Below are positions 9,604-30,300 of a DNA stretch of 64,000 nt, piece by piece (position 1 is the first letter of the stretch; the number at the start of each line of letters is the position of its first letter). Location: positions 10,081 through 74,080 of the forward strand of contig VGHA01000004.1 in assembly GCA_016868375.1 (NCBI GenBank), written 5' to 3'. Source of the DNA: Betaproteobacteria bacterium (GTDB taxonomy: Bacteria; Pseudomonadota; Gammaproteobacteria; Burkholderiales; Burkholderiaceae_E). The translations under genes and the position numbers were made by a program. The notes below the pieces were generated by a model, which was given only the letters and a program-made list of their open reading frames with translations, searched no databases and was not told the origin of the DNA.

Positions 9604-9608
9604 GGCCG

Positions 9609-11895: not shown

Positions 11896-11934
11896 AAAAA
11901 CCCCGCGCTTTACCCGGAAACAACACTCGCGGGG
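11896..11934 (-). terminator. Candidate intrinsic terminator downstream of hemE
   Basis: The minus strand reads CCCCGCG-(20 nt loop)-CGCGGGG followed by TTTTT. It lies about 90 nt after the hemE stop. The loop is long, so confidence is modest. Confidence 0.35.
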
Positions 11935-12020
11935 CGCGCGCTGTGCATAAGTCAGCGCCCGCATGCTCGCGAACCCTTGTTTTTCGCGCCTTCGCAAGGC
12001 GCGCCGGTGCGAGAGATTGG

Positions 12021-13160
12021 CTAAAGTGAGGACGCGCTAGCGCCGCGGCGCCTTTGTTCACGGCTGTATGCGTGGACGGCTTCGACCAGCGCAGTAACCG
12101 ACTCGGGTGGCGTGAACTGCGAAATGCCGTGACCGAGGTTGAAAACATGGCCGATTCCGGGCTGCGGCACACCAAAGCTCTCAAGCGCCTTCAACGCCTC
12201 GCCGCGAATCTGCTCAGGCTGGGCCATCAGCACCATCGGGTCAAGATTGCCCTGGATCGCGCAGCGCGCTCCGACGCGCGCGCGCGCCTGACCGAGGTTC
12301 ACGGTCCAGTCGATCCCCACGCCGTCACAGCCCGAGGCGGCGATTTCCTCAAGCCACAAGCCGCCGCCTTTGGTGAATACGATCACTGGCACCGATACGC
12401 GGCGCGTGCCAACGACCTTGCCGTCGGCATCGACAACAGGCTCATCGCGCTCGCGCTGCAGACGGTCGATGACCTGCCGGATTGGCCCCAGCGAAAATTT
12501 CTGGAATGCGCCGTCGGCGAGCGCGCCACCCCAGGAATCAAAAATCATCAGCGCCTGGGCGCCCGCCTCGACCTGTGCGTTGAGGTAATCGGCCACCGCC
12601 TGCGCATTGACCTCGAGGATGCGCTTCATCAGATCGGGCCTGCGATAGAGCATCGTCTTGACCTGGCGGAAGTCGTCGCTGCCGCCGCCTTCGACCATGT
12701 AGCAGGCAAGCGTCCAGGGGCTGCCCGAAAAACCGATCAGTGGCACACGACCGCCCAGAGCGCTGCGAATCGTACTGACCGCCTTCATGACATAACCCAG
12801 TGAATCGGCAGGGTCGGGTGAGGCGAGCGCCGCCACCGCGGCCTCGTCGCGCACCGGCCGCTCGAATTTCGGGCCCTCGCCTTCGGCGAAGTAGAGCCCC
12901 AGGCCCATCGCATCGGGCACGGTGAGAATGTCGGAAAACAGGATCGCGGCATCAAGCGGATAGCGATCGAGCGGCTGAAGCGTGACTTCGCAGGCCAGTT
13001 CGTGGTTCTTGCACAACGCAAGAAAACTGCCTGCACGGCGCCGGGTCGCGTTGTACTCGGGCAGGTAGCGGCCCGCCTGTCGCATCAGCCAGATCGGCGT
13101 GTAGTCGGTTGGTTCGCGGCGAAGCGCGCGCAGGAAGGTGTCGTTCTTAAGCGGTGACAT
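12021..13160 (-). CDS. hemE: Uroporphyrinogen decarboxylase
   Basis: 379-aa ORF with the N-terminal signature [31 protein letters not shown], characteristic of HemE. Confidence 0.92.
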
Positions 13161-13213
13161 CGGATCAGGGCTCCTGGGGTTGGTCAGATTCGGTGGGGGC
13201 GCACTGCCCGCGC

Positions 13214-14788: not shown

Positions 14789-14868
14789 TTGAGGCTCTCC
14801 CTGACCGGTCCGCTACCGTGGCGGCCGGTTTTGATGCCCTGCATGTTACGACGGATTGCATGCGGGCT

Positions 14869-14903
14869 GCCGGCAGCGGCGGGTGCTTCGGACCGCTGCC
14901 GGC
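14869..14903 (-). terminator. Strong GC-rich stem-loop just downstream of the array (possible terminator, no U-tract)
   Basis: GCCGGCAGCGG (14869-14879) pairs perfectly with CCGCTGCCGGC (14893-14903) across a 13-nt loop. It lies 19 nt after the TAA that ends the in-frame extension. Confidence 0.3.
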
Positions 14904-14921
14904 GAAACGATGCGCCTGCGC

Positions 14922-15098
14922 TTATCCCGCGGCAGACGACCGATCGGATGAATAGGCGTCAACCCGCCCCTGCGCAGTGGCCGTGATCGTGGCGCTTTCG
15001 ATGGCTTCGGCGGTCAAGGCCGCAGCATCGACGCCCAGGCTGTCGAGCCGCGCCGACAGATCACGCTTCAGATCGTTGAGCACCAGGATGCCGCCCAC
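14922..15098 (-). other. In-frame, coding-like 58-codon extension after the TAG stop of the 732-codon ORF, ending at TAA 14922-14924
   Basis: My hand translation of the minus strand directly after TAG (15099-15101) gives VGGILVLNDLKRDLSARLDSLGVDAAALTAEAIESATITATAQGRVDAYSSDRSSAAG. The codons are GC3-rich like the upstream ORF, and the sequence has the same style as upstream repeats. Confidence 0.5.
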
Positions 15099-17297
15099 CT
15101 ACAACCCGCCTGCGCTGGGCCGCCCGGCATCTGCCTTGGCAGTGGCCTTGAGCGAGTCGCGTGCAATCACCGACACGGTGCCGCCCGCCTTGATGCTTGC
15201 CACCCCGGTACGGGCTTCGACTTCGGCGCGCGAGCCGCCGCGGTAGCGATTGATCGCGAGCAGCCCCGCTGCGGCAGTGCGAATGCCCGGGTCGCTCAGC
15301 GCATCGGCAATGGCTTCCATGACCAGCGACGACCGTGCATCGACCGCTACCGCCCCGGTGGCATTGAGCCGGCTGGCATTGACGGTGACCGCGGTATCGC
15401 GCGCCTTGCCAGTGTCAGTGGGTTCGCCGCCCGCAAATTTTTTGGCGTCGAATGTGCCGAGATCGCCGACATAACGACCGACCAGCTTGACGGCCATGAC
15501 CGCTGCCTGGTCACCATCGGGGGTGGCGTTCATGCCCGTGGGTGTCTCGGCCGACAGCTTTGCCTGATCGCGGGCTGCAAGCTCAATGCCTGCGTCGGCG
15601 GTGATCGAGGTTTGATAAACCGATACGCCCGTGCCGCCATTGAGCGTGTTCCAGGCGCGAAGCGATCCGATGTTGATGTCAAAGCCCAAGGTGAGGCCAA
15701 GCAATGGCCCGGGCTTGGTGGGCCCCATCTTGCCGATCTTCACGTCGGACTCGAGCGCCTGGGCTGCGAGCGCCAGGCTGCGAACATTCGCCCCACTGAT
15801 GGTGGACCGCGCAACCGTGACGCTTACCGACGCCTCAACATCATTACCGGCAAGACTTGCCGGTAAATTGGAGACGCCGTACCAGGACTCGAGCAGCTCA
15901 CCGGTGTAACCGCCCCCGGTGGCCTTCCAGCTGGAGCGGTCCTGCGCGATCGGGTTCACGTCGCCCCGGGCGCGAATCGTCGCCAATTCGACCCGCACCG
16001 CCGTGCTGGTGGTGCCGACATTGCGCGCCTGCCGTGCAGTGGCCGCCAGACTGCTGGCATCGAGTGCAAACGCACGCAACCCCGCCACATCCAGCTCGGC
16101 GCCCGCGAGCGCGGCCTCCACCGCCGAGCGAACCAGCGCGGTGCTGGTGCCCGCCTGCTTGGAGCCTGCGAAATCGCTTAACAGCCCGCCCGCAGCGCGA
16201 TCGCGTGCGAGCGCAGCCACCTGCACCACGGGCGCAGCAACGCCCTGGCCCGGCGCCACCACCACCTTGCCGGTGCCATCGCCCAGATAAGCCCTCGCAT
16301 CCCGGGTAACCAGAATGCGGTTCCAGACGTCTTTGCTTGCGTCCGACCCCGCCAATACGGAGTCCTGCACCCCGATCACACTGCGCAGCTGAGTGGAATC
16401 GGTGGCCTCGAACAACACTGCTACCGTCGACGGCGCGGCGGCCTCCACCAGAGAGAGAGCGGCATTACCGCGCGCACCCGCCTCGCTTTTCTGCTGGACC
16501 GATAGCGTGACCTTGGAGCGCTCAACACCACTTCGCTCCACTTCCATCCGCACATCGGTATCAGCCACCACAAACACACCGGCGGCGGTCACTGAAGATT
16601 TCGCGCCCAGCACAGCGCTGGCCTGCACGTCAGCGCCAAGCGAAAAATCGGTGAGCGTTACGGCGGGCTTGCCGGTATAGCCCAGGGCTGCGCTTGCGAA
16701 CAGCATCAGGTCGCCAGCGGTCTTGACCGTGCCGTTGACGTTGACCGATGCGGCAACGGTGGCGCTTGCCGAGGTGGTTGGGGAACCGGTAAGCGACGCT
16801 TCGGCAATCAGGTGCACCCCAGCACCGGCCTGCAGCAACGCGCCCTCGCTGATCTCAATCGATTCGGATTCAACGACCAGCAGCGCAGAACCAAGGTCTG
16901 CGGTCTTCACCACCACCTGGTCAGCACCCCCCAGACCGCGGATCGCGAACAAACCGGTGGGTTTGGCAAACACCAGGTCGTAGAGGCTGTCGGCGCTGAC
17001 CCGCAACCGGCCGTCGGGCTCGGTGGCAAGCGTCACTTTGTTGTCGGCGGCAGACAGGTCAACGATCAGGTTCTGGACTTCTCCCGACAACGACAGCAGA
17101 TCGCCCGTGCCGGACAGGCGGCCGCTCTGCGAGGCGCCCCGGGTCAGGTCGATGACCGTGGCCGAGGGCTCAAACTGCGCAAGATCAACCTCGACCGTCT
17201 TGCGCTCAACAACGTTCAAGCTGACGTTGTCGGCGGAGATGTCTTTAGTCGTATCGGGACGCGTCTGCTGCAGCATCGGCTCGGCCGACAGCGACAC
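15099..17297 (-). CDS. Hypothetical repetitive Ala/Gly/Ser/Thr/Val-rich (beta-helix-like) protein, with no signal peptide and no cysteine; candidate second cargo
   Basis: 732-codon ORF with a GTG start preceded by GAGGA. Composition and short repeat style resemble the giant protein. It is the last gene of the minus-strand array and ends at an in-frame TAG (see findings). Confidence 0.6.
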   Translation of the reverse strand: MSLSAEPMLQQTRPDTTKDISADNVSLNVVERKTVEVDLAQFEPSATVIDLTRGASQSGRLSGTGDLLSLSGEVQNLIVDLSAADNKVTLATEPDGRLRVSADSLYDLVFAKPTGLFAIRGLGGADQVVVKTADLGSALLVVESESIEISEGALLQAGAGVHLIAEASLTGSPTTSASATVAASVNVNGTVKTAGDLMLFASAALGYTGKPAVTLTDFSLGADVQASAVLGAKSSVTAAGVFVVADTDVRMEVERSGVERSKVTLSVQQKSEAGARGNAALSLVEAAAPSTVAVLFEATDSTQLRSVIGVQDSVLAGSDASKDVWNRILVTRDARAYLGDGTGKVVVAPGQGVAAPVVQVAALARDRAAGGLLSDFAGSKQAGTSTALVRSAVEAALAGAELDVAGLRAFALDASSLAATARQARNVGTTSTAVRVELATIRARGDVNPIAQDRSSWKATGGGYTGELLESWYGVSNLPASLAGNDVEASVSVTVARSTISGANVRSLALAAQALESDVKIGKMGPTKPGPLLGLTLGFDINIGSLRAWNTLNGGTGVSVYQTSITADAGIELAARDQAKLSAETPTGMNATPDGDQAAVMAVKLVGRYVGDLGTFDAKKFAGGEPTDTGKARDTAVTVNASRLNATGAVAVDARSSLVMEAIADALSDPGIRTAAAGLLAINRYRGGSRAEVEARTGVASIKAGGTVSVIARDSLKATAKADAGRPSAGGL

Positions 17298-17447
17298 CCG
17301 ATCCTCAAGCCTTTCGACCTGTGCGCGGCTGCGGGCATACGCCAGCCTTCTGCCCCGTGGGGACCAGCGCTTGAATCGTTTTGCAAAAACGTGTCCATCA
17401 GAAACTCCAGAGAAAACCAGGCAGGCTTATCGGCTAGCCATCAAAGA

Positions 17448-18221
17448 TCAGTGCTCGTTGGGCGGCGACTTGAAGCCAGAGGTATCGGTCGGCGCCAGAG
17501 CGTCAGGGTCATCAACCGGCGGCCCGTCTTCGAGCCGCTCGAACTGCTGCAGAGAAACCAGGTGCGCGTAAATTGACGACAGCCAGCCTTCGCGACGCAG
17601 CTCGAAGAGCTTCGCGTCAGGAAGTCCGTCCAATCGCTCTTCGTTGATCACATAACAGCCGTTGACTTCGAGCGCCTCATCACCCCGGCGCGCGCGCACC
17701 GCAAACGGCGTAAACAGGTTGCGCGCCGCGAGCGCACGACAGAACGCGTCGGTGCGAAGCTGCATCTCGCGAATCTGCTGCAGCCACTCACGCGCCTGTT
17801 CAAGCGCCTCGGTGGGCGCACCCGCCGAATCAAACAGGCGGGCGCCTTCAGTGAGCGACACCAGTTCGCTCGCCGCATCGATGCAGACCGCAAAGCGTTC
17901 CGACTCGCCTTCGGCGGCTGCGCGCGCCAGCGCGAACGGATACGCGCGGATCACCGCAGGGATATAGGACGCGAGCCAGGTGCCATCGATATCAACATAG
18001 ATGTTTTCGCCCTCACGCAGGCCCAGGAGCGCCATGGGGCGGAAGCTGTCGATGTCCGGGTCTTCAACGAACACAATCGGATAGATCGCCGCAGCGCGAA
18101 CGAGCTCGGCCTGCATCAGCGCGGACATATGGACGCCGCGCGCAAACTCGAACCCGGTCTGCGGCCGCACGCGCAGCGCCGCATGGCGTTTCGAATTCAG
18201 TGCAACCAGTTCGCGAAACAC
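17448..18221 (-). CDS. SapC-family protein
   Basis: 257-aa ORF. The N-terminal pattern (LVALNSKRHAALRV...MSALMQAELVRAAAIYPIVFVED...) and the size match my memory of the SapC family (about 250 aa). It starts 15 nt after the SecA-like gene. Confidence 0.6.
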   Translation of the reverse strand: MFRELVALNSKRHAALRVRPQTGFEFARGVHMSALMQAELVRAAAIYPIVFVEDPDIDSFRPMALLGLREGENIYVDIDGTWLASYIPAVIRAYPFALARAAAEGESERFAVCIDAASELVSLTEGARLFDSAGAPTEALEQAREWLQQIREMQLRTDAFCRALAARNLFTPFAVRARRGDEALEVNGCYVINEERLDGLPDAKLFELRREGWLSSIYAHLVSLQQFERLEDGPPVDDPDALAPTDTSGFKSPPNEH

Positions 18222-18236
18222 GTCGACCAGACTCCT

Positions 18237-20258
18237 TCAGGCGCGGCTTGAGGGCTCGAACGGCAGGGCGTTGTCGAGCCAGTCATCGGACTTCAAAACG
18301 CCTCGACGACGCGAGAAGGCGTCGGCTTCCGCGCGTCGCTGTGACATTCGGATGAGCGCCCGCACCCACAGCGCGCGAAGCGGCAACCGCAGGCGTGCGG
18401 CTGTCGCAATCAGCGCCCGCGATGGGCGAGACACAAATCGCTTGATGAGGCCGTCCTCGGCGCTTACGAAAATCGATACGCTGCCGGGATCGCCCTGACG
18501 GCCGCATCGCCCGGCCAGCTGCCGATCGATACGTCCCGATTCATTGGCTTCGGCGATGATCACGTGCAGCCCACCTGCAGCCGGTACACCATCGCCCAGC
18601 CGAATATCGGTGCCGCGGCCCGCCATGTTGGTGGCGATGGTGATGCGCCCAGGCTCGCCTGCACGCGCGATGATGCGAGCCTCTTCAGCGTGCCTGACCG
18701 CATTGAGCAGCTCAAAGGGCAGACCGCGCGCGCCCAGCAGCGACGCCAGCGTTTCGCTTGACTCGACACTGCGTACGCCCACCAGCACCGGTTGGCCGCG
18801 CTCATGCAGCGAAACGATTTGCGCGACGACCGCCTGCCATTTGCGCCCCGCGGATTCAAACATCCGCGGCGCAGCCGTTCGGGTCAGCCGTGGCCGGTGG
18901 GTGGGAATAGGCACCACGCCCAGCTTGTAGATGCGCCAAAACTCGGCGGCGGCCTCGCGTGCAGTTCCAGTCGTTCCGGCAAGCCGGGGCATGCGCCTGA
19001 AGAATGACTGAAAGCTCATCTGGCCGAGCGATTCATTGGGGTCAGTCACATCGACCCCCTCGCGCGCCTCGATCGCCTGATGCAGGCCCGCGGTGAGCGT
19101 TCGGCCAGGCGTCATCCGCCCGGTGAACTCATCGAGCAGCACCACTTTGCCCTCGTCGACCAGGTACTGGTGGCCGCGCAGGATGAAGTGCCGCACGGTG
19201 AGGGCCTGGCGCAGAAGTTCTTCGCGACGCGGCTCGGCACGCCAGACAAGGCCCAGCTCGGCCGCGCGCGCAGTGAGCGCAGTGCGTGCGCCCTCGCGCA
19301 GCAACACGGTACGCTGGCGGCTGAGCAACTCGTAGTCGCGCCCCTCGACCATCTGATCGGCGATGGTCGCCACCAGCCTCGCTGCATCGGCGAGCCCAAG
19401 ATCGCTTCTTGGTGCCGACAGAATCAGCGGCGTGACAGCCTCATCGACCAGCACATTGTCAGCCTCGTCAACGATCACTGAATAGAGGCCCCGCACCTGG
19501 ATCTGCGGGGCCTGTGTATCAGGAGGCACCGTGCCGAGCCAGCGCCTGAGCGAAAGCCGCTGCGGATCGTGTCCGGCGCGCGCGGCAAGCTGATCGCGAA
19601 GGAAGTCAGCGAGCATCTCTTTTGCAGTGAGGTAGACCACATCGGCGCCGTAGCGCACGATTCGCTCCTCGGGCTTGTCGGTGGACACCACCGAGGCCAC
19701 CGAGACGCCGCATCGCTGGTAAAGCGGCGACATTTCCTGCGCATCACGCGCAGCCAGGTAGTCGTTGGACGTGACCAGATGGCAGGGCTCACCGCTCCAG
19801 GCGGCCAGCACCGCGCCAAGCGACGCCGTGAGCGTTTTTCCTTCGCCTGTGGCCATTTCAGCGAGCCAGCCACGATGAAGCGCGAGCGCACCCATGAACT
19901 GCACCGGATATGGCCGCATGCCAAGCGATCGGTAGGACGCCTCGCCGATTGACGCCAGCGCCTCGATCAGCCTGCCGCCGGCCTCGATCGGGTCCCGTCG
20001 TACCGCTTCGCGAAGCATGATCAGCTGGTCGGCAAACGCGGCGTCATCCAGCACGGAAAATTGCGCGCAGGCCTTCGCCACGCGCGCTGAGGCTCGCCGG
20101 AGTTTGACCGCATGGTGCCCGCGGCGCTTCACCCAGCCGTGTGTGGCGTGCGCAAACGCGTCGGCGCCCTCGGGAAGTTTGGGCGCGAGCGGCAGCGGCG
20201 GCGGCACAAAGCCGGCCGGAACACCGGTGCGGGGCAAGAGTGCGGCAGCGGCATCCAT
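18237..20258 (-). CDS. SecA-like ATPase (NBD1-PPXD-NBD2 motor) lacking most of the C-terminal translocation domains
   Basis: 673-aa ORF with SecA motifs: MATGEGKTLTA (19833-19856), VIVDEADNVLVDEAVTPLIL, VLLDEFTGRMTPGRTLTAGLHQAIEAREGV, AGTTGTA, TNMAGRGTDIRLG and GGLHVIIAEANESGRIDRQLAGRCGRQGDPGS. The protein ends about 70 aa after the last motif. Confidence 0.85.
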   Translation of the reverse strand: MDAAAALLPRTGVPAGFVPPPLPLAPKLPEGADAFAHATHGWVKRRGHHAVKLRRASARVAKACAQFSVLDDAAFADQLIMLREAVRRDPIEAGGRLIEALASIGEASYRSLGMRPYPVQFMGALALHRGWLAEMATGEGKTLTASLGAVLAAWSGEPCHLVTSNDYLAARDAQEMSPLYQRCGVSVASVVSTDKPEERIVRYGADVVYLTAKEMLADFLRDQLAARAGHDPQRLSLRRWLGTVPPDTQAPQIQVRGLYSVIVDEADNVLVDEAVTPLILSAPRSDLGLADAARLVATIADQMVEGRDYELLSRQRTVLLREGARTALTARAAELGLVWRAEPRREELLRQALTVRHFILRGHQYLVDEGKVVLLDEFTGRMTPGRTLTAGLHQAIEAREGVDVTDPNESLGQMSFQSFFRRMPRLAGTTGTAREAAAEFWRIYKLGVVPIPTHRPRLTRTAAPRMFESAGRKWQAVVAQIVSLHERGQPVLVGVRSVESSETLASLLGARGLPFELLNAVRHAEEARIIARAGEPGRITIATNMAGRGTDIRLGDGVPAAGGLHVIIAEANESGRIDRQLAGRCGRQGDPGSVSIFVSAEDGLIKRFVSRPSRALIATAARLRLPLRALWVRALIRMSQRRAEADAFSRRRGVLKSDDWLDNALPFEPSSRA

Positions 20259-20261
20259 GGG

Positions 20262-22433
20262 CTACACCCGGAACCTGCGCTGCAGAAACTGGCGAACGCC
20301 GCGCTCCCACTGCAACAGCAGCGGCGCGTCATCGAGCGTGAGGCGGATGGTGCCAAGCCGGCCATGCGCCAGGCCCAGCCCACCCCCCAGCGCCTCAAGC
20401 GGCAGCAGCGCCTGAATGCGGAAGAACGGTTCGGCGGCGGTGAGCCCATTTTGATCGGATGCGCTTACCGCGATGTCGCCGCCGCCTGCGAAGCCGAGCG
20501 CCCGCGAGGGCAGCGTGCCGGTTTCAAACGGAACGATCCTGGCCTCGGGCGCCACGATGTTGAGATGCTCCTGACCACGTAGCCGCAATTCAACCTGATG
20601 CACCCGGTTATCGAACAGGTGGGTGGCCACCTGCGGCAGCACGGCAACGAACCGCCAGCCATTGGGGTCGACGATGGCACCCAATGGCGAGCCGCGCGCC
20701 ACCCAGCGCCCCAGCCCGGTGTCGAGATCGGGCGCACTCCAGATGCCGTCGATCGGCGCGGTGACCAGCAGCGCCGCGCGCTGTCGCTCGAGCTCAGCAA
20801 TGACCGATTCAACCGCCACACGCTGGTGACGCAGCGGCATCAGGTCGGCCACTGACAAGGACGTTGCGCGCAGCTCCTGCGCAAGCAGCTGTTCGCGCTG
20901 CAGAAGCGCCGCGCGAAGATCAAACAGCAGATCGGGGCTTTCCAGGCGCATCAGCGGCTCACCCTGCCGAACGCTGGCACCGGGCAGCGCCATCAGCTCC
21001 ACCAGAAAGCCTGGCGACTCTGAATTGAGCTGCCGATAAGCGCTGGCCTCCAGCACACCCGAAGCGCGGATGCGATCGGGCATCGGCACCATGGAAAGGG
21101 GAACGATGACCACCGCCGCCACGGCCAGCGCGAGCCCGACCGTGCGCGCCCGGTAGTGGTGCAGGCGCGGACTCGTCGACAGAAACTTCAAAAATTTCCA
21201 GAGCGGCACCACCACCACGGTAAAGCCCAGTATCCAGGCAAGCGCCACCCCCAGATCGAGGTATTCGCCTGCAATGAAAAACACGATGGTGGCCATCAGC
21301 ATCAGCCAGTAGACGATGCTGGTCACGCCGTAAATCGGCAGCAGCCACGCTTCGGTCAAGGTGCGTGCCGCCGGTTTGGCGTTGGGCAGAAACAGCAGGA
21401 ACCGCTCGCCCAGATAGCGCAGCTGCTCGCGCGATCGCTGAAACAGATTAGGCACATCCAGAAAATCGACCAGCATGTGATAGCCGTCGAAGCGCAGCAG
21501 CGGATTCAGGTTAAAGAGCAGCGAGGACACGCTGGCCACGAAAATCACGTTGTAGGCAATGGCATTGACGGCGCCCGGCGCGGTATTGGCCCACAGCAGC
21601 GCCGCGACAGCCGCCACACCCAGTTCTGCGATCACGCCCGCGGCACCCGTCAGCAGCCGTTCGGCCCGGCTTCTGAAGCCCCAGCTGGAGGTGGCATCCA
21701 CATAGGGCATGGGTGCAAAGATGAGCAGCATCACGCCCATCTTATGAACCTCACCGCCATAACGCTTGCACACCGCCGCATGGCCAAATTCGTGGACCAC
21801 CTTGGCAATGATGAAGCCGACATACAGGAGCGGCAGATTGCCCGGGGCAAGCAGGCCCGCGCTCTGGCCAAACAGTGTGTCGGCCGAATCGATCAGCGCC
21901 TTGCCGGCCAACGCGAGCAGCGCCAGATACAGCACCGCGCCGATGGGACCAAACAGGAACCGGATCAGCGGCATGGCCGCCTGGAGCATGCGGTCGGGGT
22001 CGATCAAGGGAATCTTGATCGCCAGAAAACCCATCAGGAGCGCCTTGGTTTCCTGGCGGCGCCGCTTGCGATAGCGCTCAAAGAGGCTCGCACCCGCGCT
22101 GGAGCGGTCGAAGTTCAGCAGATTCGACAGATTGAGCTGCCCCAGAAGCTGCACCACTTCTTCCTGGGTGAGCGCCGTATCGGGGTCAGCTTCGAGCGTG
22201 AGCATCCAAGCCTCTTCAATGGTGCGCTCAAGCGACAATCGGCTGACAAAGGCCCACGCCTCGCCGCTGACACGAAACCAATCGGACGACAAGGTGTCGC
22301 GCAGCATCACCCAGGTGTCGCCACGGAAGGTTTGCCGGTGCGCGCGAACGCTTGAGCGAAGCTCAACCCGCACCTTGGCGACACGGTGCCAGGAGTCGCT
22401 GAACGTTCGAGAGGCTGGATCGTCAAAGCTCAT
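20262..22433 (-). CDS. Fusion protein: N-terminal PqqD/RRE-like domain, polytopic M50 (site-2 protease-like) metalloprotease, and C-terminal HlyD-type periplasmic adaptor domain
   Basis: 723-aa ORF with HEFGH at 21780-21794 and NLNPLLRFDG at 21483-21512. Several hydrophobic helices surround them. The C-terminal 250 aa have a coiled-coil plus barrel-sandwich style (RLESPDLLFDLRAALLQREQLLAQEL...LLVTAPIDGIW). Confidence 0.8.
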   Translation of the reverse strand: MSFDDPASRTFSDSWHRVAKVRVELRSSVRAHRQTFRGDTWVMLRDTLSSDWFRVSGEAWAFVSRLSLERTIEEAWMLTLEADPDTALTQEEVVQLLGQLNLSNLLNFDRSSAGASLFERYRKRRRQETKALLMGFLAIKIPLIDPDRMLQAAMPLIRFLFGPIGAVLYLALLALAGKALIDSADTLFGQSAGLLAPGNLPLLYVGFIIAKVVHEFGHAAVCKRYGGEVHKMGVMLLIFAPMPYVDATSSWGFRSRAERLLTGAAGVIAELGVAAVAALLWANTAPGAVNAIAYNVIFVASVSSLLFNLNPLLRFDGYHMLVDFLDVPNLFQRSREQLRYLGERFLLFLPNAKPAARTLTEAWLLPIYGVTSIVYWLMLMATIVFFIAGEYLDLGVALAWILGFTVVVVPLWKFLKFLSTSPRLHHYRARTVGLALAVAAVVIVPLSMVPMPDRIRASGVLEASAYRQLNSESPGFLVELMALPGASVRQGEPLMRLESPDLLFDLRAALLQREQLLAQELRATSLSVADLMPLRHQRVAVESVIAELERQRAALLVTAPIDGIWSAPDLDTGLGRWVARGSPLGAIVDPNGWRFVAVLPQVATHLFDNRVHQVELRLRGQEHLNIVAPEARIVPFETGTLPSRALGFAGGGDIAVSASDQNGLTAAEPFFRIQALLPLEALGGGLGLAHGRLGTIRLTLDDAPLLLQWERGVRQFLQRRFRV

Positions 22434-22443
22434 GATGCCGCGC

Positions 22444-24390
22444 TCAAATCCAGAAAACCTGCCTTAGATACCGAATGGTGCGATAGGTGAGCAGCCAGAT
22501 GATGCTGCGCTCGCCCGCCTCAAGTCGTGCGCTGCCGCCCATGCCGGGTCGCCACCACGGCTGAAACTCGGCCTCGATGCGGGCACGCGCCAGATACACA
22601 TTGCGTCCCTCACGCATGGTGGAAGCGGGATCGATCCGTTCGACCACCAGGGGATAGCGAAGATCGGGTCGGCCAACGAATGAGAACTGGCCACGCATGC
22701 CGATGGCGATTTCATGCACGTCGGCCTGATCGACTTCAAGCTCGACGTAGGTGTCACCCGTGTGGGCGAGCTTGACCAGCAGATCGCCTTTCCGAACAGG
22801 CGCGCCCAAGTTCTTTTTCAGCTCGCCCTCGACCACCACGCCAGTGAAGGGCGCCCGAAGCTGCGCATGAGCGAGCTGATGACGCGTGAGCTCGAGCTTG
22901 GAGGCAGCCTGCTGCTGGCGCGCCAGCGCGATCTGCATATCGGCAAGCTGGCGCGCAGCCTGGGCTTTTTCGGCCTCACGCGCGTACCGAACCGCGTCCG
23001 CCGCTGCCATGGCCTCTTCGAGGATCAGTTCGCGCGTGTCAAGTTCGACCAGCAGCGCGCCGGTTCGCACCGCATCGCCCACTTCAATGTAGGCATTGCG
23101 CAGGTAGCCATCAAACGGCGCGGGAATGAACAGGATGTCCTTGCTGCGAAGCGCGACCGGCGTACTGATTCGGTAGGGCCAGGGCAGCACCGCCAGCAGC
23201 GTGATCAGCACCGCCGTCCCAACCCCCACCAGTTTCCAGGCGGTATAGCTTGGCCCAAGCAGCAGGTCGCGCCATGCGACGAGCCGGGCAAACGCTCGCG
23301 CGCCAATCCAGCGGTCGGTGTCGTGCAGCACCACGAGCTGCCGGGCGCTGGACTCGCCAATGAGGCGCAGCTCCCAGGTTTCGCCAGGCTCGAACGCCCG
23401 GGCCCGACGTTCCAGGGTGAGCACCGCGACCGCGACATTGTCGACTCGCAGCGGCACCGACAGCAGATGCCCCGAGCCCTGCGTGCGTGAATAGGTTTCA
23501 TGCGCGCGGCCCACGATCCGGGCATCGGGCGCTATCGGCCAGGCAAGTTCGATGTTCTGGTCGAGCGCCTCTTCCATGGCAGATTCAAGCTCGCGCGAGG
23601 CGTTGGCGCGGCGATCAAACTTTTCAACATGACTGACCGCGGTCAGCCGTACATAGCGGCTGCGCACCCAGCCCAGCGACACCCGGTCGCACTGAAAACG
23701 CACGGCAAGCTCATTGGCGAGCGTGAGCGCGGCGCGCATGAAACGGGTTTCAGCGCCCAGACGAATCGATAGCTGCAGCACGTCATACAGACGCTCTGCG
23801 CCGGTGGCCTGGGGCGAGCCCGCTTGCGCGGCCTGCTGCGACGCGGATTGCGCAACCAGCGCACGAAAACGCGCGTATTGAGCGGGAATTGACCCGGCCA
23901 GATCGGCGAGTGCGATCAGCGTTGCCGCATCCGAGGCGGCAGCGCCTGCAATCGGCGCCTGCGGCAGGATCACGATGACGGCGGTCTGCCCGGCCTGCAC
24001 CGTATCGGCTGCCAGGCGCGTCGAGATGGCGGGCGCGTTGCCGCCGGGCCGAGCCGCTGCCGCGCCCGAGGGCGGTGCTATGGCGGCATCGCCCAGGCCT
24101 GGCTCGAGATAAGGCGACTCGTCGGCCGCGCCATCTGCGAGCCTCAGGATTCGAAGCGCATCGCCCGTCTGGTCGGGTGCACCCTGTGGCCACTGCGCCT
24201 GCGGCTGCCATCCCCGCTCATCATCGCGGGCAAGAAGCAGCACCCGACGCGCGACAAACGCGAGCGCCACGGCCTCGAGGTAGGCGGGCCAGAAGGCCTG
24301 CGCATCACCCGTAAACGATGCAAGCTCAGCGAGCCTCGCCGAACCCCGACGGACGTCGGCACCTTGCCGGGCGAGGAGCTCTGCGTGCAT
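22444..24390 (-). CDS. GAF-domain / single-TM / HlyD-family membrane fusion protein
   Basis: 648-aa ORF with a cytoplasmic GAF-like region (LANELAVRFQCDRVSLGWV...HLLSVPLRVDNVAVAVLTLER) and a TM helix (WKLVGVGTAVLITLLAVLPWPY). The rest is an HlyD hairpin and beta-barrel region (FDGYLRNAYIEVGDAVRTGALLVELD...LRAPFTGVVV). Confidence 0.8.
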   Translation of the reverse strand: MHAELLARQGADVRRGSARLAELASFTGDAQAFWPAYLEAVALAFVARRVLLLARDDERGWQPQAQWPQGAPDQTGDALRILRLADGAADESPYLEPGLGDAAIAPPSGAAAARPGGNAPAISTRLAADTVQAGQTAVIVILPQAPIAGAAASDAATLIALADLAGSIPAQYARFRALVAQSASQQAAQAGSPQATGAERLYDVLQLSIRLGAETRFMRAALTLANELAVRFQCDRVSLGWVRSRYVRLTAVSHVEKFDRRANASRELESAMEEALDQNIELAWPIAPDARIVGRAHETYSRTQGSGHLLSVPLRVDNVAVAVLTLERRARAFEPGETWELRLIGESSARQLVVLHDTDRWIGARAFARLVAWRDLLLGPSYTAWKLVGVGTAVLITLLAVLPWPYRISTPVALRSKDILFIPAPFDGYLRNAYIEVGDAVRTGALLVELDTRELILEEAMAAADAVRYAREAEKAQAARQLADMQIALARQQQAASKLELTRHQLAHAQLRAPFTGVVVEGELKKNLGAPVRKGDLLVKLAHTGDTYVELEVDQADVHEIAIGMRGQFSFVGRPDLRYPLVVERIDPASTMREGRNVYLARARIEAEFQPWWRPGMGGSARLEAGERSIIWLLTYRTIRYLRQVFWI

Positions 24391-25526
24391 CAGCGTCTGG
24401 CCCGGTTCGCTGGCGGCGTCGCGCCTGGCGAGGACACCGAGGTGGCGGTAATGCGGCCGGCCGTTCCGGGCCGAATCGATCCGTCGGCGTTGTCGAATTC
24501 AGCAATCACATCCACCAGTCCGCTGGCCGGATCAGCGACCGGCGATACAAACACCAGCTGCGCGAGCCGGGTTAAGGGCTCCGCATCAGATCCGAGCTGC
24601 AGCATCACCGAGCTGCCGGCGCGCACCCGGGCAGCGTCTGCGATCGGCACGGTGCCGCTGAAGCGCGCCGTGCGCACATCAACGACCACCATGACCGGTT
24701 CGTGGGGCGCGACGCTTTCACCGATGCGCGAGACGATTCGCGTGACCACGCCATCGATTGGCGAGCGCAGGTGCCGCCGCTCGTAGGCCTCGCGCGCCAG
24801 ATCGAGTTCAACGCGCTCGCGCCGCTTGGCAAACTCAATCGACTTGCGCTCGGCGATGATGGTGCCCAGCGCGAGCTCTTCATCTTCAACCTGTTTGCGC
24901 GACACGCCGCCGGTGGTCAGAAGCGATTTCGCCGAACGCACCTGTTCAGTCAGGGTGAGCTCTTTGGCGCGCAGCTCTTCAAGCCGGGCGTTGTCCTCGA
25001 GCATGACCTCGCGGCGCCGAACCTCGAGCGACTCAAGGGTTCGGTCCATGTGAAGGAGCAGGTCGCCCTTGCGCACCCGATCGCCTTCCTTCACGAACAG
25101 CGCTTCGATGCGGCCAGCGGCGGTCACGCTCAGCTTAAGGTCATGGATGGCCTGCGTGATGCCGGCGGCCGGCGTCACGGCGCCTGACGCGGCTGCAGGC
25201 CTCGCGGCACTGGCGCCTGCGGTCGCAGCCGAATCCGCTGTCGCGCCGGTACCGGAAGCGGCGGCCGGCTGCGCTGCGGGAACCGCAAACGAGGGGGCTG
25301 CAGGCTCGGGGATCCTGGGCAGGTCAGCGCGGCCGGACGCGGGAAGCGACTGCACCGGCCCGCGTTGCGCGCCGGCAGCGGGCACATTGAGCGCGGGCGA
25401 CGCGGCAGGGGACGCGTCAGACGCCCAACCCGGCGTCGCAGCCGCCACCAGCGTGAGGGACAGGACGAGCCCTGCCACGCAACGCGCCCCGGCGAAGTGC
25501 TTCTGGCACTGCATCAGCCACGCCAT
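24390..25526 (-). CDS. HlyD/RND-type periplasmic adaptor (membrane fusion protein) with signal peptide
   Basis: 378-aa ORF with an N-terminal signal-like segment and an Ala/Pro-rich linker. It has a lipoyl-like motif (IEALFVKEGDRVRKGDLLLHMD), a coiled coil, and LRSPIDGVVTRI. Both ends have ATGA overlaps with neighbouring genes. Confidence 0.8.
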   Translation of the reverse strand: MAWLMQCQKHFAGARCVAGLVLSLTLVAAATPGWASDASPAASPALNVPAAGAQRGPVQSLPASGRADLPRIPEPAAPSFAVPAAQPAAASGTGATADSAATAGASAARPAAASGAVTPAAGITQAIHDLKLSVTAAGRIEALFVKEGDRVRKGDLLLHMDRTLESLEVRRREVMLEDNARLEELRAKELTLTEQVRSAKSLLTTGGVSRKQVEDEELALGTIIAERKSIEFAKRRERVELDLAREAYERRHLRSPIDGVVTRIVSRIGESVAPHEPVMVVVDVRTARFSGTVPIADAARVRAGSSVMLQLGSDAEPLTRLAQLVFVSPVADPASGLVDVIAEFDNADGSIRPGTAGRITATSVSSPGATPPANRARR

Positions 25527-27160
25527 CAGCGCCAGCGATCCAGCAACTGCCCCTGGGCGGCCTCGAGCAGTACATCGGCCTTGCTCCAGGCCACCTGCTG
25601 CTCGATCACCGCCAGCCGCGCGTTAATGGCGCGCTCTTCGCGCAACAGGATTTCGCGCATGTCGCTACGGCCCGCGGAAAGCCGCGTGCGCTCCAGTTCA
25701 AGCTGACGCTGCTCGCGCTCGGCAACGTCTTTCCAAAGCGACCAGCGTTCGTTGGCGCTTGCCAGCATGCCAATGCCCGTGTCGATGTCGTTCGCAATCG
25801 CCACCTCAAGCGCCTTCAACTGCAGCAGCGCATCCTCTTTGCGCAGCTTCGCCGCCTGGATGTCCGCCTTCGCCTGCCGGTTCTCCCCCAGCGGCATCGA
25901 CAACTGCAGCCCCAGCGTCCACGACGGGTAGTCATTCATCCTCATGTACGACAGCGAGCGCGCCGCCGACATCTCCAGACCGTTCATGCCGTAGCTCGCC
26001 ACCAGATCGAGCTTGGGCAGTCCCTGGTTGTTCGCATACGCAAGCTGGATGCCCTCGCGCTCGAGCATCGCCTTGCGCATCCGGTAGTCGTCGCGGCGCT
26101 CGATCGCGCGCCGCATCGCCTGTTCAAACGCCACCGCCCGGCCCTGAACCGCCGGCAGCGCGTCGCTGGCACGCAGGCTCGCCGGCGCCTCGTTGGCTGC
26201 CACCATCAGCAGCGTGCGAAGCTTGTTGACCCGCTCCTGCACACCCTGGCGGGCCTCACTCAGGCCAGCCTGGAAGCGACCCAGGTTGTTCTCAACTTCC
26301 CAGATTTCAGACTGCGGCAGCCGGCCCTGTCGGTTGAGCGCGCGAGCCTCCTGCAGCAGCCGCTCGCCCATTCGGACCTTCTCAATGGCCGACCCGGCGC
26401 GCTCCTGCGCAAGCAGCAGATCCCAGTAGGAGAACACCGCCTCGGCGACCACGCTCGCTTCGGTATCGCCGCTGGCAAATTTCGCCGCCCGCGTGTCCAA
26501 CTCAGCAACCCGTACCCGCGCCAGCGTGACATCGCGACCCGCGTCACGCGCCAGCGGCTGCGTGAGGGTGAGTCCGTAGAACGCCCGGTAGTCGTCGTTG
26601 TCGTTCTGACGGATGTTGCGCGTGATGTTGGTCATGAACTTCGACATCGTCGCCTTGGCCTCAACCTTGGCGCCGGTTTCGAGCAGCTGCGACACACCCA
26701 CCGAGTAGTCAACGCCGGTGCGGTCATACAGACCGAGACCCTGACGAATGAGATCTTCCTCAGGGGTGTTCTTTAGCCGCTGACGGCCATTGAGCACCGA
26801 GACCGAGGCCTGCGGCTGGAAAGCCGAGCCCGCGCGCTCGATGCTGGTGCCGGCGATTTCCTGTTCGGTTCGCTTGGACAGGATCGCCTTGTTCGCAGCG
26901 CGAATCTGGCGCACGAAGGGGGCCAGTTGAAGGTTGGTTTCGCGGGCGGTGGCGGTGGCCGCGGCGGGAGCGGCGGCGGGGGATTGAGCCGCCACCGGCG
27001 TCATCGCGATCGACATGAGCGCCGCGCAAGCCAAGGCCCAGCGCGATACGCCACCCATCGACTGCGGGGGGTGGCTTGCCCGCGGCTGCGGTGAGTCGGG
27101 ATGCGTTCCGCCGCACGTCACGAGTCGGTATCGCCAATAGGTTGAAACAGGTGGTTTCAT
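25526..27160 (-). CDS. TolC-family outer membrane efflux protein
   Basis: The ORF has two internally repeated OEP-like halves with long helical segments (e.g. ARVRVAELDTRAAKFA..., LQLKALEVAIANDIDTG...). The signal peptide MGGVSRWALACAALMSIAMTPVAAQ begins at the ATG at 27058. The 34 codons upstream of it have low GC3, so the true start is probably 27058 rather than 27160. Confidence 0.8.
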   Translation of the reverse strand: MKPPVSTYWRYRLVTCGGTHPDSPQPRASHPPQSMGGVSRWALACAALMSIAMTPVAAQSPAAAPAAATATARETNLQLAPFVRQIRAANKAILSKRTEQEIAGTSIERAGSAFQPQASVSVLNGRQRLKNTPEEDLIRQGLGLYDRTGVDYSVGVSQLLETGAKVEAKATMSKFMTNITRNIRQNDNDDYRAFYGLTLTQPLARDAGRDVTLARVRVAELDTRAAKFASGDTEASVVAEAVFSYWDLLLAQERAGSAIEKVRMGERLLQEARALNRQGRLPQSEIWEVENNLGRFQAGLSEARQGVQERVNKLRTLLMVAANEAPASLRASDALPAVQGRAVAFEQAMRRAIERRDDYRMRKAMLEREGIQLAYANNQGLPKLDLVASYGMNGLEMSAARSLSYMRMNDYPSWTLGLQLSMPLGENRQAKADIQAAKLRKEDALLQLKALEVAIANDIDTGIGMLASANERWSLWKDVAEREQRQLELERTRLSAGRSDMREILLREERAINARLAVIEQQVAWSKADVLLEAAQGQLLDRWR

Positions 27161-27323
27161 CGACCGGTTCCTAATGAACAGGAAACAAAAAAGTGGGCTC
27201 AGACATCGAGTTATGCAGGCGGCAGCCGACTAGAAATTTTGACTCGCTTATAGCTGATTTCACCGAGCTTGTCTTACATGGCTTTTCGCTATCAAAATCA
27301 TTCCCGGATTCCATATTTTCGGG
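27161..27323 (-). promoter_or_regulatory. AT-rich intergenic region between the giant gene and tolC (probable internal promoter/regulatory region)
   Basis: This is clearly the most AT-rich stretch of the right-hand 49 kb (e.g. AAATTTTGACTCGCTTATAGCTGATTT, ATCAAAATCATT). It widens to 265 nt if tolC starts at 27058. No confident -35/-10 pair could be assigned by eye. Confidence 0.35.
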
Positions 27324-30300
27324 TCATGCATCCGTCCTTTCAGATTGCGTGCTGCCGCGGTCAACACTGGCTGAGTTCTCAAGCGAAAGTCTGACTGTTG
27401 GGTCAGCCGAAACCGCCGGGGCATCGGCCGGTAAACCCTGCTGCGGGTCAGTGGTCACCACCCCCTCCGCGGGTCGATCGAACCAGCGTGCCAGACGATC
27501 CGCCAGCCCGTGAACCACCCCGCCCAGGCGCGCACGAATCCCGGTAACTCTCAGCGCCGGCTCTGCTGGCTCGGACTCGGACGTGGTGGCCGGTGTTGAG
27601 CGATCGCTTCGCGGTGCCTCAGCCGGGGCCGCGCCCGAGTCAGGCGCTGAGCCTGGCTCCGGCGGCTGACCAGGCGCCGGTTCCGGCGTGCCAGCGGGCG
27701 CAGCGCCTGCCGGCGGCGTAACCGGCAGCACCGGCGCTGCGGGCGCTGCGGGCGCTGACTCCGACCGCGCGGCGGGACTGCGTGCAGCATCGCTGACCGA
27801 CTGCATGGCCACGGTCGCGCTGACGCTCTGCGATACCGGCTGGAGGACCGCCGAGACCGGACGCTGTTCCACCACCCGCGGGGCCGCTTCGGTAATCAGC
27901 GTGCTGCTGACCGTGACGGGCGTTGCGCTGCCGCGCGAGGCAATCACCTGCGTGATCGGAATCGCGGACTGGGCCCCGAGCAAGCCCTCGGTGACAGCTT
28001 GCAGGCCTGCCGAGAGCACGTTGGCCGTACTCGATGAAATCGTCGGCGATGCAAGCCCGGTGGTGCTCGCAGTCGCCCCGGCCGCGCCCGCTGGCTGCGA
28101 GAACAGGCCGCCCGACACGAGGCTGATCATCGATAAGGCTTCCTTCTCGGCGATCGCGGTCTTGCCCGCCAGCATCACCGATCGGCCGCTACGTGCCTCG
28201 AGCCGACCGGGTTCTATCCGCCCGGTTTGCGTGAGGAGCGCGACCCAGCCAGTGCGTGACTCGTTGACAACCCCGGCCGCGCCAATTCGAAGCCCCGTCT
28301 CGCCTGCCAGCACGATGTGCCCGCCGGAACTGTTGCGCGCTTCAACCGACCCCACGCTGACCCGCAGACTGGCCTCGCCAAACTGCCCGATACCGTTCAC
28401 AGCGGCCAGTTGCAGCGCCCGCGAGGTTCGAATATTGAAGGCCCGGTCGGTGGTTGAGTCGTAGATTGCGCCACTGCTGGTGACACGGATGGATCCGCTG
28501 CTGGATTGGATTCGCGCGATCCCGATGTCGCCATCGGCCTGCAAAGCGATGTCGCCCTCGGTGGTTGAAATGCTGCTGCCAGGTTCCATGACGATAGAAC
28601 CCGAGCTGGTGATGCGAACCTTGCCCATCGGCGCCGAGATGCCATCGACGACTTTCAGCGGGCCTTGAGCGTCGATGAAAACATCGCCGCGTTCGCTGAC
28701 CGCGGACACGCCCGCTGCCGCAACGGCGGCCGCCAGATCGCCCGCGGCGCGAATCCGCGCCAGTCCCGTGGTTCGGACCTGGGTGGTGGCGGCCGAATCA
28801 AGGTCCAGGGACACATCACCAGTCGCGGCAACCGTGACCGCCGCGCCGATCAGGCTCAAGGTTCCACCGATCCGGTTGGCTGCGTCATCGAGCACAATCG
28901 ACTGCGCCGCGGCACTGATGCGGCCACCGCCAGCGATCTCGAGTGCTCCCTGCTGGCGAACCGCACCCGCCGAATCAATATCGACCCGGCCGGCGAGACG
29001 ACCGCTGACCAGCAGGACCTCACCGTCTGCATCGGTACGAACCGAGAGCAGGCTGTTTGCCCCGCTGGCCTGCGCCGCCAGTCGCAGCGCACCCTGCGCG
29101 CGCACGCTGGCATCGCCTGACACCGCAAGCGACAGATCCAGCGGGCCCGCATCGCGGATTCGTGCAACGCCCGCCTCGATCCTCACCGGTCCGTCGAACT
29201 GGTTGTCGCCCCGTGACAGGTCGACAACACGCCCTGCTGCACGGACCTCGGTCGTTCCCGTGACCTTCGCGGCGCCCGTCTGTTCAACCCCGCCCTGCAG
29301 CAGGAGATCGCCTGCGATCTGCACTTCGCCCAGGCGGATCAGCCCCGATTCGCTCGCAAGCGAGGTGTTGCCGTCGACGCGAAGCGTTGCGGCCGACAGC
29401 GCTTCACCCTGGCTGATCGCAGACAGCCTTGCCTGCGCACCCGTTACCTTGCCGGACACTGCGAGACTGCCGCCAGCCCGCACCACCGCCGACGCAGACT
29501 CGTCAGCCGCCCGCGATGCATCGCTTTGCGACAGGTCGAGCGTCACCGCGACGTCGTTGCGGTCGGACAGCGACGCGGCGCGCCCGATCAGCGTCACCGT
29601 GGCGCCGAAATCATTGTCACTGCGATCAAGGATGATCTGGCCCTGCGCACCCGCATCCAGGCGGCTCGCGCCGCCGAGGGTGAGGCCTCCGGTCTGGCTG
29701 ATTGAGCCGCTCGCGTTGACCGCCATGATGCCGCTCATCTGAAGCGCGCCCAGGCTTGCCGCGGCGCCTGCCTGCAGCGTCAGATTGGCGCGTGACCCGG
29801 TCAGGCGGCCCTCGACCGAAGCGGCGCCCGCCGCCGTCAGCGTGACCGGGCCTGCCGCATCGAGCGACACGGTGAGCGCGTTCCGATCAAGGATCGTGGC
29901 CGCCCCCCCGCGCAGCGTGAGCCGCGAACCGAAGTCGTTGCCAGCCGCCGTCAGCACGGTGCTGGTTGAGCGAATCACCGCGTCGCCGCTTACCTGTATC
30001 TGCGTACCCTCGGCCTGCGTCAGCTGACCGGCCTCGGAGTCGATGCTGAGGCCACCCACATTGAGCGAGACCGCAAGCGTCACATCATCGGTATTGACGA
30101 TCGACAGCGTCCGGCTGCTGAGGGTGACGGCACCGCCCGCCTGGGCTGGCGTCGTCACCAGATCCGCTCCGGTGCGGCCTGCGATCGCGAGGCTGGCAAT
30201 TTCCAGGGCCCCGCCATCGACCGCCACGGTGCCAAGATTCAAGGTCTCGACACCGGTGAACGCGACCCGGTTAGCATCGCCCGCGAGCATGCCGTCTTTA

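Follow-up and report, generated by a model that had tools for sequence, protein, structure and literature searches.

The 64,000-nucleotide window analyzed here (positions 10,081 to 74,080 of contig VGHA01000004.1, assembly GCA_016868375.1, Betaproteobacteria bacterium) contains a cassette of genes directly downstream of an open reading frame (ORF) for a giant adhesin-like protein. The cassette encodes a TolC-family outer membrane factor, a periplasmic adaptor (HlyD1), an adaptor joined to a GAF domain (GAF-HlyD), an adaptor joined to an M50 metalloprotease (M50-HlyD), a truncated SecA-like ATPase, and a SapC-family protein. We lean towards the view that it is a dedicated envelope-spanning machine for the export and maturation of giant, cysteine-free, β-helical or adhesin-like proteins bearing a LEPR-XLL leader. 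To our knowledge, the export of proteins of 10,000–36,000 residues over two bacterial membranes is largely unexplained, and every characterized TolC-dependent machine is driven by an ATP-binding cassette (ABC), resistance-nodulation-division (RND), or major facilitator superfamily (MFS) transporter. No ABC, RND, or MFS gene was present in the 64-kb window, as judged by profile calls, a scan for Walker A, LSGGQ, and Walker B motifs, and a count of polytopic ORFs. This agrees with a preliminary description of the same DNA, whose domain calls (TolC, HlyD, GAF-HlyD, M50-HlyD, truncated SecA, SapC) were all upheld by Pfam and NCBIfam profile searches. The SecA-like and M50-HlyD proteins are annotated as "hypothetical protein" in the NCBI records (MBM3405966-71).

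At least 1,840 homologues of M50-HlyD were recovered from a protein collection at E ≤ 1e-10, and 379 loci encoding the fusion were located in GTDB species genomes, of which 80 (1.19 Mb in all, designated by L numbers) were fetched and inspected. The carriers belong to the Burkholderiales (including Comamonadaceae and Burkholderiaceae), Magnetococcales, Methylococcaceae, an alphaproteobacterium, and Verrucomicrobia. Limnohabitans planktonicus II-D5, Limnohabitans sp. WS1, and Azohydromonas australica DSM 1124 are the cultured carriers among the 80 loci, the rest being metagenome-assembled genomes (MAGs). Tblastn with the window proteins revealed a near-universal gene order, [SapC]-TolC-HlyD-GAF-HlyD-M50-HlyD-SecA-like-[SapC]. 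When only those fetched loci with enough sequence were counted, M50-HlyD was accompanied by GAF-HlyD in 64/64, by the SecA-like ATPase in 58/60, by TolC in 40/41, and by SapC in 22/30. The same gene order in dozens of loci from several phyla places the arrangement far beyond chance. The preliminary description had tied the cassette to large surface proteins, and the neighborhoods agree: truncated SecA and M50-HlyD lie nearly always together, beside a giant ORF and not beside small peptide genes.

The cassette is modular in composition. In L005 (1-3530), a close relative of the window, the giant gene leads directly to GAF-HlyD without TolC or HlyD1, and Rubrivivax-type loci (among L011, L013, L014, and L062) are rearranged to giant-M50-HlyD-SapC-TolC-GAF-HlyD-SecA-like, again without HlyD1. 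In several MAGs, two to four paralogous cassettes are spread over different contigs, each apparently with its own giant gene (L005/L070/L075/L079; L009/L011; L012/L014; L021/L049; L022/L058; L015/L071; L004/L040; L007/L053).

Adjoining the cassette in 35 loci were ORFs whose length ranged from 1,200 to more than 3,300 aa, most of them truncated at the edge of the locus. They are placed upstream of TolC (the window arrangement) or roughly 1 kb downstream of the SecA-like gene. Their cysteine content was 0.05%, versus 0.99% for the other ORFs, and most of the few cysteines stemmed from one spurious antisense ORF; near freedom from cysteine is expected for proteins threaded in an unfolded state. 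Giants of the downstream type begin with Met and about 20 K/R-rich residues followed by R.R.QVE(R/K)LE(D/E/P)RxL(L/M)SA(E/D)P. The leaders of the L054, L046, L025, and L072 giants, which include a verrucomicrobial example, scored 19.7–25.3 bits against the LEPR-XLL model NF012209 (cut-off 17). Forty loci each had a single copy of the motif LE[DEP]RxLLSA, in every case N-terminal in the ORF adjoining the cassette, and in 39/40 that ORF was large or cut by a contig end. These leaders are basic and amphipathic, and a hydrophobic h-region is absent from them. The L046 giant also bears LktA_tand_53 repeats.

Leaders of this kind have been noted before. The accessible parts of a paper on Chlorochromatium report a LEPRxLL N-terminus and flanking sapC and tolC genes for the giants Cag_663 (36,806 aa) and Cag_665 (20,647 aa), and LktA-type repeats for Cag_665. 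Those parts list sapC as a component of a type I secretion system (T1SS) operon, propose a Sap/T1SS-like route with an unlinked HlyD, and tie neither a SecA-like ATPase nor an M50 protein to the giants' export; its supplementary material contains nothing on Cag_1676 or Cag_1507. A related planctomycete motif, RRLxxExLExRxLLA, was suggested long ago to be an export signal of a novel kind.

Directly upstream of the LEPR-XLL giant in L046 (14199-15143), L025 (14226-15134), L066 (14386-15192), and about 25 other loci, the window not among them, lies a conserved ORF of about 300 aa, placed between that giant and SecA-like/SapC, that matches no Pfam family. Its identification as a divergent SapC was rejected (BLASTP E 4.2).

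The giant ORF of the window has no in-frame stop before base 64000 and specifies a protein of more than 12,221 aa, with 0 cysteines in 12,222 residues. It contains a Laminin_G_3 domain, several PA14/GLEYA lectin domains, and one F5/8-C-like domain. DUF5649 matched 17 stretches within the last ~3,100 residues, 14 of them at E = 4.9e-132. A single RTX nonapeptide patch (HemolysinCabind, 1e-5) was found in mid-protein (aa ~5280-5308; window 48071-48157, minus strand); the window giant has no C-terminal RTX block, unlike T1SS substrates. An exact 48-mer scan of metagenome contigs for sequence beyond base 64000 gave no match. A protein-based scan found a region of contig L081 (1-20739) that is 51% identical to the first 277 residues of the window giant. 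The matching region is internal to another giant ORF, which spans at least 6,912 aa without reaching either end and has 3,300 aa or more ahead of the match; the window giant may therefore extend several thousand residues beyond base 64000.

The C-terminus of the window giant consists of a ~150-aa A/P/S-rich linker and then an amphipathic helix, GIRARLGGVVHGLADRLARWFDR, about 50 aa before the end; the helix motif recurs in 6/8 other cassette-adjacent giants compared. Giants that end upstream of a cassette share this linker and helix (window 27324-27800, L005, L007, L008, L011, L013, L014, and L062), the helix being basic with the consensus LRARLxxAYxGLxxRLxRWF[D/E]R, 45-60 aa from the giant's end.

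The SecA-like protein yielded profile matches to SecA_DEAD (2.5e-83), SecA_PP_bind (2.5e-18), and P-loop_SecA (2e-51) and aligns to residues 43-650 of the 871 residues of Thermotoga maritima SecA. Its retained parts are nucleotide-binding domain 1 (NBD1), the preprotein crosslinking domain (PPXD), NBD2, and the initial half of the scaffold helix; wing domain, two-helix finger, and C-terminal tail are all missing. The motifs MATGEGKT (Walker A), VDEAD, TNMAGRGTDI (motif V), and GRCGRQGDPG (arginine finger) are intact, and the ATPase motifs were kept in 55-57 of 57 full-length homologues, in which the tail past GRxGRxGDxG always measured 76-93 aa. The 120 closest homologues range from 446 to 719 aa, the shorter ones being fragments; none (0/120) has a scaffold/wing or SEC-C Pfam domain, and their Pfam families are limited to SecA_DEAD, P-loop_SecA, SecA_PP_bind, and generic DEAD/Helicase_C. 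Among representatives at 50% identity from an exhaustive search, the top 150 were 392-721 aa long, nearly all 616-721, and scored 417-688 bits versus 402 bits for the best canonical SecA. We conclude that the SecA-like protein is not the product of a broken gene and belongs to an old and diverse family, presumably an active one.

A motor so clearly derived from SecA, with an intact PPXD clamp, raises an unlikely alternative in which export takes two steps. The SecA-like protein would be an accessory motor of the SecA2 type that hands the giant to the housekeeping SecYEG, the three adaptors and TolC would move a periplasmic intermediate over the outer membrane, and M50-HlyD would act as a peptidase of the signal-peptide type. 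NCBIfam SecA2 models match the SecA-like protein at 1e-109 to 1e-136, and it scores under every full-length NCBIfam SecA/SecA2 cut-off. In mycobacteria and Listeria, SecA2-only systems are known to work through the general SecYEG, and pumps of the MacAB type are generally held to take periplasmic substrates. Against such a route, the family uniformly has no two-helix finger, wing domain, or C-tail, and the LEPR-XLL leader has none of the hydrophobic h-region typical of Sec signals. In addition, a scan of transmembrane (TM) counts found no polytopic ORF resembling SecY or SecY2 in any of the loci, and the motor gene is tightly linked to that of M50-HlyD, with gaps that are often only a few nucleotides.

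It is less probable still that the giants leave by an ordinary T1SS, with an ABC transporter gene located elsewhere in the genome or past the giant gene and the SecA-like protein acting as a cytosolic holdase, unfoldase, or targeting factor. SapC was first described in the sapCDEF T1SS operon of Campylobacter fetus, the conserved C-terminal amphipathic helix of the giants recalls T1SS signals, and the region 5' of the window giant gene lies beyond the sequence retrieved. These points are opposed by the loci themselves, since no ORF with ABC motifs was found in the 80 loci or the window (1.19 Mb) by motif scan, TM count, and spot Pfam checks, and direct contact between the cassette and the 5' end of the giant gene is seen in about 35 loci. 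The only RTX patch of the window giant, moreover, is not at its C-terminus, and the retention of three adaptors and a dedicated ATPase together across phyla argues for a self-sufficient unit.

The polytopic ORFs found in the loci besides M50-HlyD were 7TMR-DISM histidine kinases (in the Pfam-checked loci), one MMPL protein, unrelated transporters, and two unclassified partial ORFs of 430-470 aa (L039 and L080). Upstream ORFs of ~680-700 aa with ~7 TM segments had been suspected of encoding an HlyB-like ABC protein; those checked against Pfam (L017, L046, and L061) proved to be 7TMR-DISM histidine kinases. Also discarded as partners were an MMPL/RND-like gene (L025) and matches to AI-2E and, weakly, to MFS (L078), each being confined to a single locus and not conserved.

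The membrane protease of the cassette resembles enzymes that remove leaders from ribosomally synthesized and post-translationally modified peptides (RiPPs). The model daptide_HExxH (NF041824) matched aa 24-412 of M50-HlyD at 1e-57 (195.9 bits, under the equivalog cut-off of 300), YydH/LiaK (NF058609) matched at 6e-9, and Peptidase_M50 scored 25.4 bits, slightly under its cut-off of 27.2. The M50 module is, by these sequence matches, homologous to RiPP leader peptidases and is not a member of the daptide equivalog family. It contains HEFGH (aa 214-218) and NLNPLLRFDG (aa 308-317); H214, E215, H218, N308, P311, D316, and G317 are invariant in the M50-HlyD alignment (A1), and NxxPxxxxDG was kept in 68/68 homologues. 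The protein has ~7 TM segments with a basic loop ahead of TM1, an arrangement that would put the HExxH end of TM2, like the N-domain, on the cytoplasmic side of the membrane and the adaptor on the periplasmic side. An AlphaFold2 model of the C-terminal ~270 aa resembles MexA, AcrA, and MacA (Foldseek E 2e-12, prob 1.0). Residues 1-115 were modeled with a predicted local distance difference test (pLDDT) score of 85.8 as a β-β-β-α-α-α core, for which the top Foldseek match was TbiB1, a lasso-peptide RiPP recognition element (RRE) solved with its leader peptide (prob 0.99, TM-score 0.59-0.65, E 0.045). A fold of the RRE type that binds leaders is a lead supported by this model rather than a result.

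The closest curated families of the M50 module are RiPP leader peptidases, and an RRE-like fold is typical of RiPP enzymes. The cassette might on that account mature and export a small RiPP-like peptide or bacteriocin, the proximity of giant genes being coincidental, but we consider this very improbable. A conserved small ORF or RiPP-modifying enzyme was not seen in the loci, and the one leader-like motif that is conserved stands on the giant ORFs, one per locus in 40 loci, in an association with giant genes that spans Betaproteobacteria to Verrucomicrobia. The same homology bears on an analogy to C39-peptidase exporters drawn in the preliminary description. That analogy is strengthened by the relation to RiPP peptidases, the RRE-like domain, and the shared N-terminal leader.

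HlyD-type adaptor domains (HlyD_3 and HlyD_D23) were detected by profile search in three cassette genes. HlyD1, whose RND_mfp match is above cut-off, has a hydrophobic segment at aa 11-34 that forms an N-terminal signal or anchor, followed by a long α-hairpin. GAF-HlyD has a cytoplasmic N-region with the GAF domain, one TM segment (aa 384-402), and then the periplasmic adaptor; the GAF matches were 2e-5 to 9e-5, that at 8.6e-5 being just over the gathering cut-off. The type_I_sec_TolC and NodT subfamily models match the TolC-like protein below their cut-offs. SapC matched its profile over the full length (positions 1-220 of 220), and no solved structural relative was found for it.

In L046 692-4450 (-), L017 1894-4653 (-), and L061 1059-3077 (-), a 7TMR-DISM kinase gene lies divergently upstream of the cassette, and an OmpR-type response regulator was confirmed beside the kinase in L046. 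Kinase and response regulator are absent from the window; they may regulate the system. Site-2 proteases (S2Ps) classically act in signaling, a GAF domain is present, and a kinase and response regulator adjoin the cassette in the Pfam-checked Limnohabitans-type loci, but a module for regulated intramembrane proteolysis, in which M50 cuts an anti-sigma-like factor, GAF senses, and expression of the giant gene is controlled, is scarcely credible in view of an M50 domain fused to a TolC-docking adaptor, a co-operonic TolC, and a SecA-type polypeptide motor, all hard to explain by signaling.

Taken together, these findings suggest how a dedicated export and maturation machine could operate. The cytoplasmic RRE-like N-domain of M50-HlyD would bind the basic leader (consensus R.R.QVERLEDRxLLSAEP), and the PPXD of the SecA-like ATPase would clamp the unfolded chain, which ATP would drive into an inner-membrane assembly composed of M50-HlyD (~7 TM) and GAF-HlyD (1 TM). 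The motor would have lost the parts that canonical SecA uses with SecY, namely the two-helix finger, wing, and C-tail. An S2P-type active site at the cytoplasmic face of TM2 would cut off the leader, and the α-hairpins of M50-HlyD, GAF-HlyD, and HlyD1 would build a periplasmic tube docking onto the TolC-like channel, through which the chain would exit without a periplasmic intermediate. The GAF domain may gate the system upon binding a small ligand, and SapC may be an accessory, possibly a chaperone of the cargo. The C-terminal A/P/S linker and amphipathic helix of the cargo could serve as a tether through the TolC/adaptor duct or as a second, T1SS-like signal. As in the preliminary description, we infer from sequence that the SecA-like protein is the energizer, that M50-HlyD is the conduit, and that export proceeds in one step.

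Several points weigh against this scheme. The domain identities, synteny, association with giant genes, shared leader, uniform truncation of SecA, and lack of ABC, RND, and MFS genes in cis were established directly, and each mechanistic step is inferred from them. We know of no precedent for an inner-membrane conduit made of S2P-type helices. In the full-length AlphaFold2 model, the membrane domain is of low confidence (pLDDT 35-57), too low for a pore to be discussed. The RRE assignment hangs on the weak E-value of its Foldseek match, and neither a profile search of the PDB nor Pfam to E 10 gave a PqqD/RRE sequence signal in the N-domain. Genes located elsewhere in the genome could contribute an ABC transporter or SecYEG, and the scan of the loci for ABC genes relied on motifs, not profiles. 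Composition also varies: the SecA-like gene is missing in cis at L008 and L054 (one MAG), and SapC and HlyD1 are not universal, HlyD1 being missing, for example, in loci of the L005, L008, and L011 type. No ORF of at least 1,200 aa was found in the fetched flanks of L069, L003, and L006, the latter two being close relatives of the window. Lastly, the leader of the window giant is presumptive, as its N-terminus lies in DNA beyond the window edge.

The features of the window are listed in Table 1. All seven ORFs downstream of the giant ORF were confirmed on the minus strand. Two pairs of genes overlap at TGATG junctions that share 1 base (gap -1), and the remaining intergenic gaps are 10, 3, 15, and 150 nt; the preliminary description had given these four correctly and had listed the overlaps as ATGA with gaps of -4. 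The spacer between the giant gene and tolC is markedly AT-rich by eye within a window of ~65% GC, and neither a consensus sigma-70 site nor a convincing terminator was found in it. A promoter and terminator scan of the whole cassette returned no more candidates than expected by chance. By profile search, the other large ORFs at 1-15000 are mostly housekeeping genes (DsbA, SPOR, ArgRS, acyl-CoA ligase, a Cys/Met pyridoxal phosphate enzyme, cytochrome c, UvrD/Rep, PriA, HemE, and a thiamine pyrophosphate (TPP) enzyme).

Table 1. Features of the giant gene and the cassette in the 64,000-nt window.
Feature	Position (nt)	Strand	Evidence or comment
Giant adhesin-like ORF, presumed cargo	27324..64000 (ORF 27324-63989 and beyond)	minus	5' end outside window
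AT-rich 163-nt spacer, giant gene to tolC	27161..27323	minus	possible internal promoter/regulatory region
TolC-family outer membrane factor, 544 aa	25526..27160	minus	OEP 2e-26
Periplasmic adaptor HlyD1, 378 aa	24390..25526	minus	RND_mfp 2e-34, HlyD_D23, HlyD_3
GAF-HlyD, 648 aa	22444..24390	minus	GAF + HlyD_3 1.8e-15
M50-HlyD, 723 aa, whole gene	20262-22433	minus	Peptidase_M50 + HlyD_3 + HlyD_D23
M50-HlyD cytoplasmic N-domain, aa 1-110, RRE-like (PqqD-type), putative leader binder	22104..22433	minus	model
M50-HlyD membrane domain, aa ~150-449, site-2-protease-like, ~7 TM	21087..21986	minus	Peptidase_M50, daptide_HExxH
M50-HlyD periplasmic adaptor domain, aa 450-723, α-hairpin	20262..21086	minus	HlyD_3, HlyD_D23, model
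Truncated SecA-like ATPase, 673 aa	18237..20258	minus	SecA_DEAD, SecA_PP_bind, P-loop_SecA
SapC-family protein, 257 aa, accessory	17448..18221	minus	PF07277 1.8e-70
Decayed 5' remnant of second LEPR-XLL giant gene	14943..17398 ("732-aa" ORF 15099-17297)	minus	comparison with L054, L002

The last ORF of the series, predicted to encode 732 aa, had been put forward as a possible export substrate, a role that its lesions contradict. It matched no family by profile search, and a homologue search returned only 4 matches owing to its low-complexity composition. The L054 homologue (83% identity) makes up residues 1-785 of a giant ORF that is at least 3,088 aa long. Compared with L054 and L002, the window copy has lost 1 nt after codon 5, and its ATG at 17398 is consequently not in frame with the leader. 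The leader motif has a Leu-to-Ser change (LEDRVSLSA versus LEDRVLLSA), and Gln733 is replaced by a stop codon, past which homology to L054 runs for 52 codons. Everything beyond aa 785 is deleted, the homology ending before the TPP-enzyme gene. The identical 732-aa call in 20 JGI sequences (P0121) indicates that the lesions are probably real in the population; the remnant is missing altogether from the closest relatives L003, L005, and L006. By its sequence, the ORF is a pseudogene left over from a second giant gene of the LEPR-XLL type.

If the cassette is the proposed machine, it would supply the missing export route for LEPR-XLL giants, including Cag_663 and Cag_665, the largest known bacterial proteins, and may also serve the RRLxxExLExRxLLA signal of Planctomycetes and Verrucomicrobia. 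It would provide an orphan N-terminal signal with a machine and tripartite systems with a new energizing principle. Giant-protein export would become testable in cultured hosts (Limnohabitans, Azohydromonas), and the secretion of very long recombinant polymers is a possible use. A full-text literature search, incomplete in its coverage so that an earlier description is possible, did not find the cassette described.

Comparison with known systems places the cassette beside several of them and within none. Like the T1SSs for giant adhesins (HlyB/HlyD/TolC; LapBCE-LapA), it sets a TolC-family duct and HlyD-type adaptors beside a huge, cysteine-free, repeat-rich cargo with lectin or adhesin domains and a conserved C-terminal helix. 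In contrast to them, it has three different adaptors instead of one, an ATPase derived from SecA, and a cargo with an N-terminal LEPR-XLL leader and no C-terminal RTX block, which is probably exported N-first rather than C-first. The cassette is not a T1SS member, as the defining ABC transporter is absent from the window and the 80 loci. With the peptidase-containing ABC transporters (C39 peptidase-ABC plus HlyD-type adaptor), it would share the coupling of leader recognition, cleavage, and export in one inner-membrane protein with an adaptor. Where those transporters have a cytosolic C39 cysteine protease, the cassette has an intramembrane metalloprotease of the M50/S2P type; its energy would be supplied by a SecA-like ATPase that is a protein of its own, not by ABC domains fused to the protease; and its presumed cargo has thousands of residues rather than being a small peptide.

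As in the Sec and accessory Sec systems (SecA/SecYEG; SecA2-SecY2, the latter serving large serine-rich adhesins), a SecA-type NBD1-PPXD-NBD2 motor appears dedicated to very large surface proteins. Unlike those systems, the cassette is Gram-negative, has TolC and adaptors in its operon, a presumed cargo whose leader has no hydrophobic core, and a motor without wing, two-helix finger, and C-tail, and is accompanied by no SecY2 or Asp genes. The M50 RiPP leader proteases (NF041824; NF058609) share with M50-HlyD a homologous N-domain and membrane protease with HExxH and NxxPxxxxDG, and differ in that M50-HlyD is fused at its C-terminus to a periplasmic adaptor and lies in an operon with TolC and the SecA-like gene, next to giant genes and without RiPP tailoring enzymes. 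The Chlorochromatium giants, on the accessible evidence, resemble the cassette's presumed cargo in the N-terminal LEPRxLL, the LktA-type repeats (compare the L046 giant), and the SapC and TolC gene neighbors. SecA_DEAD/PPXD modules without scaffold or wing are embedded in giants of Omnitrophota and actinobacteria, for which a role in export has been proposed (bioRxiv 10.1101/2023.11.21.568195). Those modules, which we liken to the cassette motor by description, are fused inside the giant and lie near type II-like systems, whereas the SecA-like protein of the cassette is free-standing and 650-700 aa long.

The cassette is probably a TolC-dependent tripartite export system with an unprecedented inner-membrane module that has gone undescribed. 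It may even represent an unrecognized class of Gram-negative secretion system, a proposal that we advance tentatively and would not yet assert, in which an RRE-M50-adaptor fusion and a free-standing SecA-type ATPase without the finger take the place of the ABC transporter and giants are exported N-first once their leaders have been recognized and cleaved.

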